DNA of 64,000 nucleotides from an uncultured Bacillota bacterium (GCA_963804645.1 CAWDRG010000022.1:1-64000), one strand, 5' to 3'. Numbered from the stretch's first letter, positions 21,335 to 47,300 are shown. Notes: generated by a model from the letters alone, not told the origin. Numbers and translations are program-made.

Positions 21335-21374
21335 ATCGGGTGGCGAGAGTATTGAACCGGTGGACGGACCCGAT
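21335..21374 (-). promoter_or_regulatory. Tandem operator boxes upstream of the gltD-like/nifJ/mae/hyh operon
   Basis: ATCGGGTGGCGAGAGTAT (21335-21352) and CCGGTGGACGGACCCGAT (21357-21374); -10-like TATGCT at 21306-21311, 23 nt away; distal box ATCGGCGTGCGGTCCGAC at 21548-21565. Confidence 0.55.
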
Positions 21375-21606
21375 CGCGGCGGCCTGGGGCCGTGGCCCAC
21401 CGCGCGTGCTGCCGCACGTCACGCTGGCTCGCGTCTCACTTCGACCGCGTGACCCATCGCGTCCGCGCACAGTCATACACCAGGCGCCGGACACCGCCAG
21501 TCGCACAGCACTCCGCGGCGTTCGGCCGGTAGACAGGGAAACGTGCGATCGGCGTGCGGTCCGACGGTGGCCGCCTGGGAATCGTGCCAGGCGAGCGCGC
21601 AGTGTC

Positions 21607-22974
21607 CTACAGCGCTTTCAGCTCCTGGATCAGGTGATTCACCACGTCCTGCGCGTCGCCGTAGAGCATGCGCGTGTTGTCCCCGTAGAACAAGGCGTTC
21701 TCGATGCCGGAGAAGCCGGCGCCGCGGCCGCGCTTGATGACGATCACGTTTTTCGCCTCATCGGCGTTGAGAATCGGCATGCCGTAGATGGGGCTGGCGG
21801 TGTCCGTCCGCGCGCTCGGGTTGACCACGTCGTTGGCGCCGATCACCAGCGCCACGTCGGCGTGCGCGAATGCCGCGTTGACCTCCTCGAGGTCGTGCAG
21901 CTTCTCGTAGGGCACGCCCGCCTCCGCCAGCAGCACGTTCATGTGCCCGGGCATGCGGCCGGCCACCGGATGGATGGCGAACATCACGTCGACGCCGTGG
22001 GCCTCCAGGAGCTTCGCCAGTTCCGCGATCTTGTGCTGCGCCTGGGCGACCGCCATCCCGTAGCCCGGGACGATGATCACCGTCCCCGAGTAGGCCAGCA
22101 TGATCGCGGCATCGGTCGCGTCGATCGGCTTGAGGCTCTTTCCCGCCGGGCCGGCGATCGGGACCCCGAGCTCTTCCCCGAAGCCGCTGAACAGCACGTG
22201 GGCCAGGGAGCGGTTCATCGCCTTGGCCATCAACTGCGTCAACAGGGTACCGGCGGCGCCCACGACGGTCCCGGCGATGATCATCGCGGCGTTGTTCAGG
22301 ACGTAGCCTTCGAGCCCGACCGCGAGCCCGGTGCAGGCGTTGAACAGCGAAATCACAACGGGCATGTCGGCGCCGCCGATCGGCAGGGTCATCAGGACCC
22401 CGTAGACCAGCGCCAGCGCGAAAAACAGAACGACCGTCAGCGCGGACCCCTCGCGCACGGCGGCGATCCCGGCGACGACGGACGCGCCGAGCACGAGCAG
22501 GTTCAGCGTCTGCTGTCCGCGGAACCGCCACGAATGATTGATCAGGCCCTGCAGCTTGGCGAAGGCAATCATGCTGCCGCTGAACGACACGGCGCCGATC
22601 AGCGCCCCCAACCCGGCGATCGCGGCGACCGTCTCGAACGATCCGGGACCGCGCAGCAGCTCGATCGCGGCGATCGCCGCCGCCGCGCCGCCGCCCATGC
22701 CGTTGTAGATCGCGACCATCTGCGGCATGTCGGTCATCCCGACGCGCCGCCCGGAGACCCACGCCACGCCGCCGCCGATGGCGATCGCCACCAGAATCAG
22801 CGCGATGTTCTGCAGCCCGGGGGTCAGGAACGTGCTCAGGATCGCGACCAACATGCCGGCGCCGGCCCACAGGATGCCGCCGCGCGCGGTGATCGGGGAG
22901 CTCATGCGCTTCAGACCGAAGATGAACAGGATCGACGCGATGAAATAGCTGGATTGGACCAGGCGCTCAGCCAC
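21607..22974 (-). CDS. pntB: NAD(P) transhydrogenase beta subunit
   Basis: MPQMVAIYNGMGG, IGGADMPVVIS, MAKAMNRS, PGYGMAVAQAQH, HPVAGRMPGHMNV. Confidence 0.97.
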   Translation of the reverse strand: MAERLVQSSYFIASILFIFGLKRMSSPITARGGILWAGAGMLVAILSTFLTPGLQNIALILVAIAIGGGVAWVSGRRVGMTDMPQMVAIYNGMGGGAAAAIAAIELLRGPGSFETVAAIAGLGALIGAVSFSGSMIAFAKLQGLINHSWRFRGQQTLNLLVLGASVVAGIAAVREGSALTVVLFFALALVYGVLMTLPIGGADMPVVISLFNACTGLAVGLEGYVLNNAAMIIAGTVVGAAGTLLTQLMAKAMNRSLAHVLFSGFGEELGVPIAGPAGKSLKPIDATDAAIMLAYSGTVIIVPGYGMAVAQAQHKIAELAKLLEAHGVDVMFAIHPVAGRMPGHMNVLLAEAGVPYEKLHDLEEVNAAFAHADVALVIGANDVVNPSARTDTASPIYGMPILNADEAKNVIVIKRGRGAGFSGIENALFYGDNTRMLYGDAQDVVNHLIQELKAL

Positions 22975-23266
22975 GGACGCGGTCCGGCTTACCCTTCTTG
23001 AACATCGCCAGCATGCGCTCGGTGACGACGTAGCCGCCGACGACGTTCATCGTGGCCAGCAGCACGCCGACGAACCCGATCACCCGCTCCACATCGGTGC
23101 GTGCGTCCCCGAGCGCGACCATCGCCCCAACCAGGACGATGCCGTGCACGAAGTTCGACCCCGACATCAGCGGCGTGTGCAGGATGACCGGCACGCGGCT
23201 GATCACCTCGTACCCGGTAAACGCCGCCAGCATGAACAGGTAGAGGGCGGTGAACCCGTCGATCAT
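22967..23266 (-). CDS. pntAB: NAD(P) transhydrogenase alpha2 (membrane) subunit
   Basis: LHTPLMSGSN and NVVGGYVVTERML motifs. Confidence 0.95.
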   Translation of the reverse strand: MIDGFTALYLFMLAAFTGYEVISRVPVILHTPLMSGSNFVHGIVLVGAMVALGDARTDVERVIGFVGVLLATMNVVGGYVVTERMLAMFKKGKPDRVRG

Positions 23267-24396
23267 GCTGCCGTCTCCTCGACCGCAAGCCGGGTCGGCT
23301 CGTGCAGGATCCGGCCGTCGCGGGTCAGCACGCTGCGCGCGATGATCTCATCCGCCCAGTCCGGCGCGAGCTCCCCGTTTTTGATCATGAGCGACAGGAA
23401 GTTGAACAGGTTGCGCGAGTACATCTCGCTCGCGTCCACGGGCAGCAGGCTCGGCACGTTCAGCGGTCCGTAGATCATCACCCCGTGATAGTCGGTCCGT
23501 TCGCCCGGTCGCGTCAGCACGCAGTTGCCGCCGCTCTCCGCGGCCAGGTCGACGATCACCGCGCCCGGCTTCATCCCCGCCACCGCCGCCTCGCTAATGA
23601 TGCGCGGGGCCGGACGCCCCGGCACCGCGGCCGTGGTGATGACGACATCCACGGACCCGAGGTGATGGGCCAGCATCTCCTGTTGGCTCTGGATCTCCGT
23701 GGGGGTGAGCTCCCGCGCGTACCCGCCGGCTCCCTCTCCCGCGACGTCAAACTCGAGGAACTTCGCGCCCAGGGAGTGCACTTGGTCCTTCGTCGCCGGC
23801 CGCACGTCGTAGGCCTCCACCATCGCCCCGAGCCGCTTCGCCGTCGCGATCGCCTCCAGGCCCGCCACGCCGGCACCGATCACCAGCACCGTGGAGGGAC
23901 GGATGGTGCCCGCCGCGGTCGTCAGCATGGGGAAAAACCGCCCGGTCAATTCGGCGGCCATGAGCGCGGCCCGATATCCGGCCACGGCCGCTTGCGAGGA
24001 CAGCGCGTCCATCGACTGCGCCCGGGCGATCCGCGGGATCAGTTCCATGGCAAACGCCGTGATCCGGCGGTCGCGCAGCCGCGCGACGCGCTCGTTCCGC
24101 TGCCCCGGCGCCAGGAAGCCGATCAGGGTCGCGCCGGACGGCATCAGATCGATCTCTTCGGCGCTCGGCGGCTGCACTTTGAGAATCACGCCGGCGGTGC
24201 GGTACAGCTCATCGGCAGTGGCCACGACGTGCGCTCCCGCGTAGGCCTCGTCCGGGAAGAAGCACCCGGCACCGGCGCCCGCCTGCAGGGTCACCGCCAC
24301 GCCGAGCTTCCGCAACCGGTCCGCCACGCCCGGAACCAGAGCGACCCGGCGCTCGCCCACCACAGTTTCCTTCGGTACCGCCACAGAAACCGGCAT
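23263..24396 (-). CDS. pntAA: NAD(P) transhydrogenase alpha1 (dI) subunit
   Basis: PKE...ERRVAL, RAQSMDALSSQ, GAGVAGL, GGYA, GGNC. Confidence 0.96.
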   Translation of the reverse strand: MPVSVAVPKETVVGERRVALVPGVADRLRKLGVAVTLQAGAGAGCFFPDEAYAGAHVVATADELYRTAGVILKVQPPSAEEIDLMPSGATLIGFLAPGQRNERVARLRDRRITAFAMELIPRIARAQSMDALSSQAAVAGYRAALMAAELTGRFFPMLTTAAGTIRPSTVLVIGAGVAGLEAIATAKRLGAMVEAYDVRPATKDQVHSLGAKFLEFDVAGEGAGGYARELTPTEIQSQQEMLAHHLGSVDVVITTAAVPGRPAPRIISEAAVAGMKPGAVIVDLAAESGGNCVLTRPGERTDYHGVMIYGPLNVPSLLPVDASEMYSRNLFNFLSLMIKNGELAPDWADEIIARSVLTRDGRILHEPTRLAVEETAA

Positions 24397-46149: not shown

Positions 46150-46230
46150 ACGGTCCTCGTCACCCGGGCACACCTCGAGCCAGACGGCTGCTGCTGCATC
46201 GAGTCCCTCCCCTGTCGATCGAGTGACGTC

Positions 46231-47001
46231 TCATCCACCAATGTTGAGCGCCGACCTCGGATAGCATAGGAACAGGTGGGCTGCGCCGTACAGCATGCGC
46301 CCGGCGCCGCGGCTCACAGCCTCCCGGGCGACGAGGCCAATATCTCGCCACAAGAGGCCGCCGCTGAGCGCGGCCGTGCGGTAGTCGGCGCGGACGATGC
46401 CGCGCTCATCCACGAGAATCGTCGCGGGGTCGAACGCGATCCGCCCGTCGCGATCCTGCGTGTAGTAGACGCCGAACCCGGCCCCCACGATGTTCTTGAG
46501 TTGGGTCGCGTCTCCGGTCGCCAGCTGCCACCAGCGGGAGTCTGCCCCGAGCGCGGCGCGCCGCGCCCCGAGGGCCTGCGGGCGGCCGTCGCCGTCGAGC
46601 ACGACCGTCACCAGCCGCACGGGCACCGGCGTCGAGGCCGCGGCGAGCCGCTGCTGCACCGCGAGGAAGGCCTCGTGTCCGTCCGCGCACGGCGGGGCGC
46701 ACCGGAGCGCGGACACCTGGAAGACGACAATCGTCCCGCCCAGCCGCGCCAGCGCGATCGGCGCCCCGTCCGCGCCCAGGAGCGTCACCGGCGGAGCCGG
46801 ATGAAGCAGCGGCAGCACCTGCACGGGCCGGAAGACCGCGAACGCCAGAGACGCGCAGACGAGCACCAACATACACACAGCCCCGATCGTGACACCCGCC
46901 GGCACTCCCGCGTGCTGCGCGGCGCGGCGCGTTGTGGGGGGAGCGGCAGCTTGCATCGAGGCGTTAGCAGTCACCACGGCCCCCGCGCCGGGATGGCTCA
47001 C
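46231..47001 (-). CDS. SCO/SenC-like copper chaperone (thioredoxin fold)
   Basis: TM helix, CAPPC (CxxxC), [10 protein letters not shown]; first gene of the cba operon; start uncertain. Confidence 0.75.
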
Positions 47002-47136
47002 ATTCGGTCCGGAGGGAGATTGGGAGCACGCGCTGTGGTGTCGTGGGTGCCATCGTGCGCATACGCTCCGCCCCCCGGCCGAACGAGGCTGCTGGCATTA
47101 CGCACCCCATCGTGCCAACCGGCCGCCACCGATGGT

Positions 47137-47300
47137 ATCGGGCCGAGACCCTATTCACACGGTGCCGCGTGCGCCGTGCGGGTGCGGCGGCGATATTCAC
47201 CGACAAATCGTTCGTCCGCGCCGCGGTCGCTTCCTGCGACGGCCGAAGCGGCTGACCGAGATCGGACGGCGGCGCGCGTCGAATCGGACGGCGGCCCGAT
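47137..47300. promoter_or_regulatory. Divergent operator boxes for the sco-cba-bc operon (-) and the N-ATPase operon (+)
   Basis: ATCGGGCCGAGACCCTAT (47137-47154) with CACGAT on - strand at 47109-47114; perfect ATCGG-ACGGCGGC-CCGAT (47283-47300) with CATGAT at 47323-47328; direct repeat ATCGGACGGCGGC at 47261 and 47283. Confidence 0.72.

Follow-up and report, generated by a model that had tools for sequence, protein, structure and literature searches.

Which protein reads the 18-bp palindrome that recurs in front of promoters on a contig of an uncultured Bacillota bacterium (GCA_963804645.1 CAWDRG010000022.1:1-64000), and does this box define a DosR-like regulon? The DNA in question, here called the window, comprises the first 64 kb of contig C22 from an assembly of 5.3 Mb in 22 contigs with a G+C content of 69%. 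An initial annotation of the window had listed eleven boxes of the form ATCGG-N8-CCGAT between positions 21335 and 47300 and had assigned them to an orphan response regulator encoded at 29299. Our analysis leads to the reading, to which we give a probability of roughly 0.7 on the basis of sequence comparison, that the box is an activator operator of two paralogous response regulators, R1 (the protein encoded at 29299) and R2, which would be fed by a kinase with a GAF sensor domain.

The pattern is over-represented in the window. Without mismatches it occurs four times where 0.19 matches are expected, and with at most one mismatch 16 times against an expectation of 5.2; neither count was reached in any of 100 shuffled sequences. 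Up to two mismatches, the 60 matches (52.4 expected) do not rise above chance, 19 of 100 shuffles reaching the same number, and boxes with two or three mismatches are therefore indistinguishable from chance by the pattern alone. A pattern search of the window recovered all eleven boxes at their listed positions, including the three perfect ones (30651, 35300 and 47283) and those reported to have one to three mismatches. Counted against ATCGG-N8-CCGAT, there is one mismatch at 24533, 29179, 29223, 32193, 35202 and 47137, two at 30845 and three at 21335. The search added a twelfth, perfect box at 33337 that was absent from the list. Scored in bits on the symmetric weight matrix introduced below, the box at 21335 reaches 11.8 and the remaining ten of the listed boxes 16.0 to 20.8. 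A further match with one mismatch at 13155, between the malic enzyme and hydrogenase genes, was not counted as a box, having a G where the motif needs a pyrimidine.

For the search of the whole genome, genes were called with a codon and GC3 (third codon position) model of our own, which resulted in 4507 genes and 81% coding DNA; gene starts are approximate and some of the stretches termed intergenic are probably uncalled genes. The initial annotation had proposed a comparison of intergenic with coding DNA. Exact half-sites separated by eight nucleotides occur at 34 sites in the genome, 21 of which are intergenic, versus one to five intergenic sites at each of the other spacings. In this control only the spacer was varied (2 to 14) while the half-sites were kept, so that composition is matched. 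With up to one mismatch, 125 intergenic sites were found at N8 compared with 39 to 80 at the other spacings. The weight matrix, which is symmetric and was refined on the intergenic matches, has 19 matches of at least 20 bits in the genome, all of them intergenic, 42 of at least 18 bits (38 intergenic) and 144 of at least 14 bits (83 intergenic). The resulting consensus is the 18-bp palindrome ATCGGGY-N4-RCCCGAT with half-site centres 11 bp apart. Its position 7 is always a pyrimidine and its position 6 mostly G, and neither the central four bases nor the flanks are conserved. We are all but certain that this motif is real. One match, C17:406214, lies beside a TTGACA-17-TATAAT promoter of an EF-Tu gene and is attributed to chance.

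The 83 intergenic sites of at least 14 bits are distributed over 43 positions in divergent gaps, 33 in tandem gaps, three in convergent gaps and four at contig ends, against a background by length of 27%, 58% and 16% for the three types of gap. Such a distribution is the pattern of a promoter element and not of a terminator or an extragenic repeat. When these sites are read both ways, giving 166 directions, a hexamer TANNNT begins at an offset of 21 nt from the box in 6 of them, of 22 nt in 23 and of 23 nt in 9, and at any other offset between 0 and 54 in no more than three. At least one direction has the hexamer at 21-23 nt at 38 of the 83 sites. Among the 38 intergenic sites of at least 18 bits the number is 25, or 32 if the first base of the hexamer is left free. 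Each -10-like hexamer named by the initial annotation likewise lies towards the downstream gene, with its first base 22 or 23 nt from the edge of the box.

Thirty-seven promoters were oriented by means of their -10 hexamer. In this set the promoter-proximal half of the box is better kept, with C14 in 36 and G16 in all 37 promoters, and the distal edge is preceded by two purines, most often A (in 18 and 22 of the 37 promoters; A makes up about 15% of the genome). The -35 region is poor: its best match to TTGACA mostly comprises two or three of six bases, the fixed last T of the box included, and the -35 position shares its first base with the box. With the transcript start placed 7 nt beyond the -10, the box would extend from about -52 to -35 and be centred at about -43.5. 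A site abutting -35, a fixed distance to the -10 and a weak -35 are the features of class II activator-dependent promoters, and the constant 21-23 nt argue for the class II-type position of an activator that had been suggested for the window. The second box claimed 22-24 nt further upstream is not a general feature, as a matrix match of at least 8 bits lies at such a distance in a single one of the 37 promoters. The two tandem cases given for the window, 35226 and 47261, turned out to be half-boxes scoring -1.3 and 1.5 bits. On the count of one in 37, a tandem architecture like that of the Dev box of mycobacteria was rejected. The distance that does recur between boxes is 43-44 nt from start to start (6 of 37 promoters, for instance 29179/29223), and each box of such a pair serves one of two divergent promoters.

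The proposed binder R1 is encoded on the plus strand at 29299..29991 and consists of a receiver domain (REC, PF00072, 2.5e-27) and a GerE/LuxR-type helix-turn-helix domain (PF00196, 1.2e-21), both above cut-off, which places it in the NarL/FixJ family. The regulator's own promoter contains a box, as had been noted: the box at 29223 and its -10 face the R1 gene. The designation as an orphan needs correction insofar as the protein is not unique, its paralogue R2 (C11:188474-189151) being 82% identical over 213 residues. Their recognition helices, KTVQSHRAHI in R1 and KTVQTHRAHI in R2, have no counterpart of the form KTVQ[ST]HRAHI in any of the 15 other GerE proteins of the genome. Full-length comparison of R1 with the PDB ranks VraR (5hev, 4.6e-49) before NarL (2.1e-35) and DevR (3.2e-34), the latter in fifth place, and in a comparison with NCBIfam profiles R1 reaches no equivalog. 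In the neighbourhoods of R1 and R2 in this genome, no kinase gene adjoins either of them.

The regulator and the motif were followed through a comparison set of 94 genomes, all those available for the phylum, which fall into one order with seven families; the 31 nearest genomes form a subset. The counts include two unpublished genomes, G030 (in both the 31- and the 94-genome set) and G054 (in the set of 94), both of which belong to the group lacking an orthologue. With E <=1e-75 and at least about 52% identity as the criterion, 69 of the 94 genomes contain a regulator orthologue; among the 54 good-quality genomes the number is 44. The 69 orthologue-bearing genomes (198.9 Mb) have the exact pattern ATCGGNYNNNNRNCCGAT at 613 sites and the other 25 (69.6 Mb) at 85, corresponding to medians of 2.9 and 1.1 per Mb (Mann-Whitney p 9e-6 for the motif density, a value that ignores kinship). 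Relative to a control with purines and pyrimidines swapped (R/Y), the 31 nearest genomes contain 247 motifs to 61 where the orthologue is present and 37 to 19 where it is not. The same can be seen within genus g2, in which G007 and G012 have the regulator and an excess over the control (12 to 3 and 9 to 4), and G014, G016 and G018 have neither (2 to 4, 5 to 4 and 2 to 2). At the regulator itself, a box of at least 13.5 bits is located within about 250 nt upstream of the orthologue at eight of eleven loci of the family. Ten loci from other families include four with a box and a -10 facing the regulator gene, eight with at least one box of at least 12 bits and two with none, and the helix KTVQTHRAHI is identical in all 12 orthologues from other families. 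A comparison of the DNA around the universal stress protein (usp) and glyceraldehyde-3-phosphate dehydrogenase (gap) genes showed genomes of the same genus to be too diverged for footprinting; most matches to gap lack a box and probably represent a housekeeping paralogue. In a genome of the same genus that is 65% complete and in which no regulator orthologue was found (G004, contig C4), the -10 and the proximal half of the box are preserved before usp, and the distal half has diverged.

The genome encodes six HisKA_3 kinases, three of which adjoin other NarL-type regulators. A GAF-HisKA_3-HATPase kinase of 394 residues is encoded at C11:214356-215540, inside a second box-rich island of the genome. 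In 12 of the 30 other nearest genomes its orthologue lies 12-67 nt from the regulator orthologue, on the same strand and upstream in 11. From this adjacency in related genomes we infer that kinase and regulator are very probably a cognate pair which has become separated in the present genome. Pfam recognizes a single GAF domain in the kinase, and within it Cys79-x-Cys81-x17-Cys99 as well as His115 are invariant in all eight aligned orthologues. This motif suggests a metal or iron-sulfur sensor of redox state or of a gas, with His115 as a possible fourth ligand. In database comparisons of the kinase, PDB sequence searches match DevS or DosT in the ATPase domain only, NCBIfam matches cover the kinase core only and are all below cut-off, and a word-based protein search produced 87 matches, all of them to GAF kinases with generic names or none. 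The Atlas search returned generic GAF clusters, and an AlphaFold model (mean confidence, pLDDT, 80.7) resembles kinase cores and photoreceptor kinases only among PDB structures.

Taken together, these data suggest the following mechanism. A dimer of R1 or R2 would bind a single box whose proximal edge abuts the weak -35 region, and would recruit RNA polymerase by class II-type activation as in DosR. What the data show is the motif, its constant distance to the -10, its spread over genome and lineage and its co-occurrence with the regulator; binding, the sign of regulation, the kinase partnership and the signal are inferred. The input would likely come from the cytoplasmic GAF-HisKA_3 kinase on C11. 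As output we envisage some 40-80 promoters forming a regulon that would serve life under low oxygen or low energy. Its members would include about eight molybdopterin oxidoreductases, PFOR, phosphofructokinase, GAPDH, transhydrogenase, a ba3 oxidase with bc complex and a second ATP synthase, together with universal stress, CBS, Hsp20 and cold-shock proteins, a protein resembling a hibernation factor, and the regulator gene itself.

Several observations weigh against this reading. A box in front of the regulator gene indicates membership in the regulon and is not proof that the protein binds it. The gene calls come from our own model, and the training of the matrix on intergenic matches makes the intergenic shares at low thresholds circular in part. 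Three of the eleven family loci have no box upstream of the orthologue, and the statistics of co-occurrence are overstated because related genomes are not independent. Genus g10 (G022, G027 and G056-G061; eight genomes) keeps the regulator, the same helix and the kinase, with the exact motif at 0-0.9 per Mb, which is the baseline, and at two of its loci the regulator has no box. In this genus the box may have changed, or the regulon may be small; its kinase gene has, upstream of the matched part, a stretch that appears to be coding, judged from an open frame of about 600 amino acids and from the sequence itself. Conversely, G005 and G047 lack a detected orthologue yet hold 4.4 and 4.7 motifs per Mb. 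Both assemblies are incomplete (86% and 78%), and G005 has a fragment of the kinase at a contig end.

Could the box be the real operator of some other factor, of the CRP/FNR type or another of the LuxR type, with the response-regulator genes as mere targets? Relative to the -10, a class II CRP/FNR site has its end where the box has, and at least five HTH_Crp_2 proteins of the genome exceed the Pfam cut-off. A 15-bit match lies about 220 nt upstream of the gene for one of them, near C17:1098-1301; the hexamer beside this match (CACGGT, 23 nt) points away from the CRP/FNR gene, however, and neither of the two box-rich islands contains a gene of this type. A PAS-LuxR gene at C15:255288 does have a box of 16.6 bits, but the helix of its product, TATVRNHTQ, is unlike the conserved KTVQ[ST]HRAH. 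The situation in g10, where the regulator persists without an excess of motifs, speaks for control by another factor, and the conservation of the regulator, its helix and the self-targeting boxes across families speaks against it; we consider this explanation unlikely. Somewhat less probable still is that R1 or R2 binds the box as a repressor and occludes the -35 until it is released by a signal. Some NarL-family proteins are able to repress, redox repressors such as Rex have an overlapping gene content, and the overlap of the box with the first base of the -35 position would fit occlusion. Repressor sites are, on the other hand, not usually fixed to within one base of the -10 over dozens of promoters, and poor -35 hexamers are expected of activator-dependent promoters. 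The position of the box also matches that of the DevR activation sites (PMC3177182).

That the box might be a repeated extragenic palindrome or the remnant of a mobile element, without any regulatory protein, is hardly credible. Two identical perfect boxes, each with TATCTT 22 nt on, adjoin ISL3-type transposase/HTH_32 genes at C8:113231 and C17:14678, and a few matrix matches fall within repeated stretches. Against a repeat stand the lack of conservation in the central four bases and the flanks, the low number of sites in convergent gaps (3 of 83), the fixed spacing to the -10 and the maintenance of the box before unrelated genes in many genomes. As to the two copies beside the transposase genes, an ISL3-type insertion sequence may carry a promoter of the box regulon.

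Activation by R1 and R2 invites comparison with DosRST of Mycobacterium tuberculosis (DevR/DosR with DosS/DosT), which likewise combines a NarL-family regulator with a HisKA_3 kinase bearing a GAF sensor domain. The gene content is similar in that universal stress, CBS and Hsp20 proteins, an Rv2629-like factor, phosphofructokinase, ferredoxin-linked and nitrate-reductase-like enzymes and a P-type ATPase belong to the DosR regulon as well, and self-regulation, suggested here by the box before the regulator gene, is a further common trait. The gene content thus resembles that of the DosR regulon, as initially proposed, but R1 is closer to VraR than to DevR. According to PMC13486717, the DosR dimer touches sigma region 4 and the alpha subunit, and the base-reading residues of DevR in helix alpha9 are K179, K182 and N183. 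They align with K197, Q200 and S201 of R1, so that only one of the three is kept, and the rank in sequence comparison together with these residues indicates that R1 is not a DosR orthologue. Both operators are GGG/CCC-rich palindromes with a proximal copy near -42 to -44 that reaches the -35; DevR sites are centred at -42.5 (proximal box) and -63.5 (PMC3177182). The same source describes a Dev box of 20 bp with half-sites G4G5G6A7C8T9 which is needed in tandem pairs in helical phase. The present box, by contrast, measures 18 bp, has invariant outer AT bases and usually stands alone, and the aligned promoters agree with the earlier distinction between GGG-N6-CCC here and GGG-N8-CCC in the Dev box (PMC3177182). 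DevS and DosT have GAF domains in tandem and bind haem with the first of them, whereas the kinase on C11 has one GAF domain. The rank in sequence comparison, the base-reading residues, the geometry of the box, the single sites and the architecture of the kinase all set the system apart from the DosR group.

Other relatives share single features with the system. The best full-length match of R1 is to the VraR/LiaR type, and the match of the helix-turn-helix includes K-T-V at the start of the recognition helix; VraR continues as KTVKTH, in contrast to KTVQ[ST]H in this clade. The kinases of VraSR and LiaSR are membrane proteins that sense the cell envelope, and these systems govern cell-wall genes and not energy metabolism. 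AirSR (YhcSR) of Staphylococcus aureus consists of a NarL-family regulator and a cytoplasmic kinase. The [2Fe-2S] site of AirS is given as Cys-x7-Cys-x-Cys-x17-Cys in the review PMC4601167, and the spacing of the last three cysteines is identical in the GAF domain of our kinase; the first cysteine is absent here, and we take the likeness as a lead. Neither an AirR operator resembling the box nor any description of the box, or of a DosR-like system in such lineages, was found in our searches of open-access papers.

If correct, the proposed circuit provides a testable wiring diagram for an uncultured lineage without genetics, in which a single DNA word marks the genes that are probably co-activated at shortage of oxygen or energy and in which the regulator, its paralogue and the probable sensor kinase are named. 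The box can be used for the annotation of regulons in about 70 related genomes bearing the regulator, and the cysteine motif of the kinase leads to a possible non-haem GAF sensor. The system is also one more example to weigh in asking whether dormancy gene sets of the DosR type have a single origin or several. A more far-reaching interpretation, which we regard as tentative and rather doubtful, is that the whole lineage represented by the 94 genomes shares one master switch for low oxygen or low energy, with its own helix and DNA word, a GAF kinase that senses by way of a metal or iron-sulfur centre of three cysteines plus histidine and not by haem, and a single dimer site where DosR needs tandem sites, as a convergent counterpart of DosRST. 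The dormancy gene set would then be an ancient module found across phyla and rewired repeatedly to regulators that are not orthologous. In this lineage the switch would have recruited the stress genes seen in DosR (universal stress, CBS, Hsp20, hibernation factor, glycolysis and ferredoxin enzymes) and, in addition, a ba3 oxidase, a second ATP synthase and about eight paralogous molybdenum reductases.

Pfam confirmed the target genes that the initial annotation had named in the window. The R1 gene's own box (29223..29240, plus strand; 20.2 bits, TAGCTT 22 nt on) lies 44 nt, start to start, from the divergent box 29179..29196 (minus; 20.3 bits, TACGCT at 22 nt) before a cold-shock-domain gene (csp, 28892-29140). 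It is followed by the perfect box 30651..30668 (minus; 16.0 bits, TACCCT at 22 nt) before ybaK, a gene with a YbaK-type tRNA_edit domain (30108-30608), and by box 30845..30862 (plus; two mismatches, 19.2 bits, TATCGT at 23 nt) before the baeRF gene (30945-32132). The baeRF protein scores above the Pfam cut-off for baeRF_family10 and is distantly related to ribosome hibernation factors of the Rv2629 type, its 39 bits lying far below the NCBIfam cut-off. Next are box 32193..32210 (plus; 19.8 bits, TACGAT at 22 nt) before a CBS-pair gene (32283-32882) and the additional perfect box 33337..33354 (plus; 20.7 bits, TATGTA at 22 nt) before a CBS-BON gene (33562-34320). The latter box is contained in a stretch of 730 nt (32882-33616) without a gene recognizable by Pfam. 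Box 35202..35219 (minus; 20.2 bits, TATCCT at 22 nt) precedes the universal stress protein gene (34685-35116) and a small open reading frame (ORF, 34446-34634), and the perfect box 35300..35317 (plus; 20.8 bits, GATGAT at 22 nt) precedes the GAPDH gene (35348-36448).

Box 47137..47154 (minus; 18.7 bits, CACGAT at 22 nt) lies before an ORF (46231-47001) that is followed by CoxIIa, COX2, COX1, Rieske and cytochrome b/c genes (41797-46149), and the perfect box 47283..47300 (plus; 20.4 bits, CATGAT at 22 nt) before a small ORF (47370-47624) and an ATP synthase operon (47621-53880). This operon starts with the genes for beta and epsilon, continued by AtpI-like, a, c, b (a weak OSCP-like match), alpha and gamma, which we take to be the gene order of N-type ATPases. 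Box 24533..24550 (minus; 19.6 bits, TACCAT at 23 nt) stands before pntAA-pntAB-pntB (21607-24489). The weak box 21335..21352 (minus; three mismatches, 11.8 bits, TATGCT at 23 nt) precedes a row of genes for a GltD-like protein, PFOR, malic enzyme and a [NiFe]-hydrogenase with its maturation genes. The claim that PFOR and hydrogenase are under control of the box depends on this site and on the assumption of a 16-kb operon; it receives some support from an intact paralogue of the first gene of the row on C5, which has a 19.7-bit box with TATCCT. This first gene, encoding a GltD-like Fe-S flavoprotein (19606-21400, minus strand), is itself split over two overlapping frames, one with Fer4_20 and the NAD-binding part and the other with Pyr_redox_2 and the ferredoxin part, which is a frameshift or an assembly error; the intact paralogue, at C5:16592-18376, has 594 residues. 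Another matrix match, 26965..26982 (15.8 bits, orientation not assigned), is located in the gap above an ORF (26572-26817) and has no -10-like hexamer at 21-23 nt.

Outside the window, the 83 intergenic sites of at least 14 bits include the second box-rich island on C11 (about 188-238 kb). About eight genes for molybdopterin oxidoreductases of the DMSO-reductase family lie in this island and at scattered sites. Paralogues of about 800 residues are encoded at C11:189232-201488 and 229252-231651, C13:4441-6840, C5:262195-264537 and C9:305939-308692; almost all of these genes are equipped with a box and -10 of their own, and one precedes a gene for a NarJ-type chaperone. Further box genes encode several more universal stress and CBS or CBS-BON proteins, Hsp20, phosphofructokinase, adenylate kinase, an ADP-forming acyl-CoA synthetase with a GNAT domain, Nramp, a P-type ATPase, a radical SAM enzyme, four sugar-type binding proteins and one PAS-LuxR protein.

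RNA contigs come from four metatranscriptome runs of one study. The runs were selected on positions 28800-36500 and contain 21-42% of the sampled words of this region; the lack of coverage over 36.7-47.3 kb therefore carries no weight. Contigs that are 95-99+% alike to the window cover csp, the regulator gene, ybaK, baeRF, CBS, CBS-BON, usp, gap and the start of the atp operon. At csp, ybaK, CBS and usp, contigs end 7-11 nt inside the predicted transcript starts: at 29135 for a start at about 29144 (csp), at 30605 in two runs for about 30616 (ybaK), at 32252 and 32254 in two runs for about 32245 (CBS), and at 35156 for about 35167 (usp, contig 34424-35156). Contig ends, here from a single study, cannot show a transcription start, and these are compatible with the predicted starts and no more. 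In the same four runs, contigs do not end in this way at gap, atp, the regulator gene or CBS-BON. From the CBS gene, RNA contigs extend into the stretch 32882-33616, to about 32950. Between the glycerol-3-phosphate dehydrogenase and csp genes, the contigs of three runs have eight other letters in place of the 61 nt at 28799-28861, which is probably a difference between strains.

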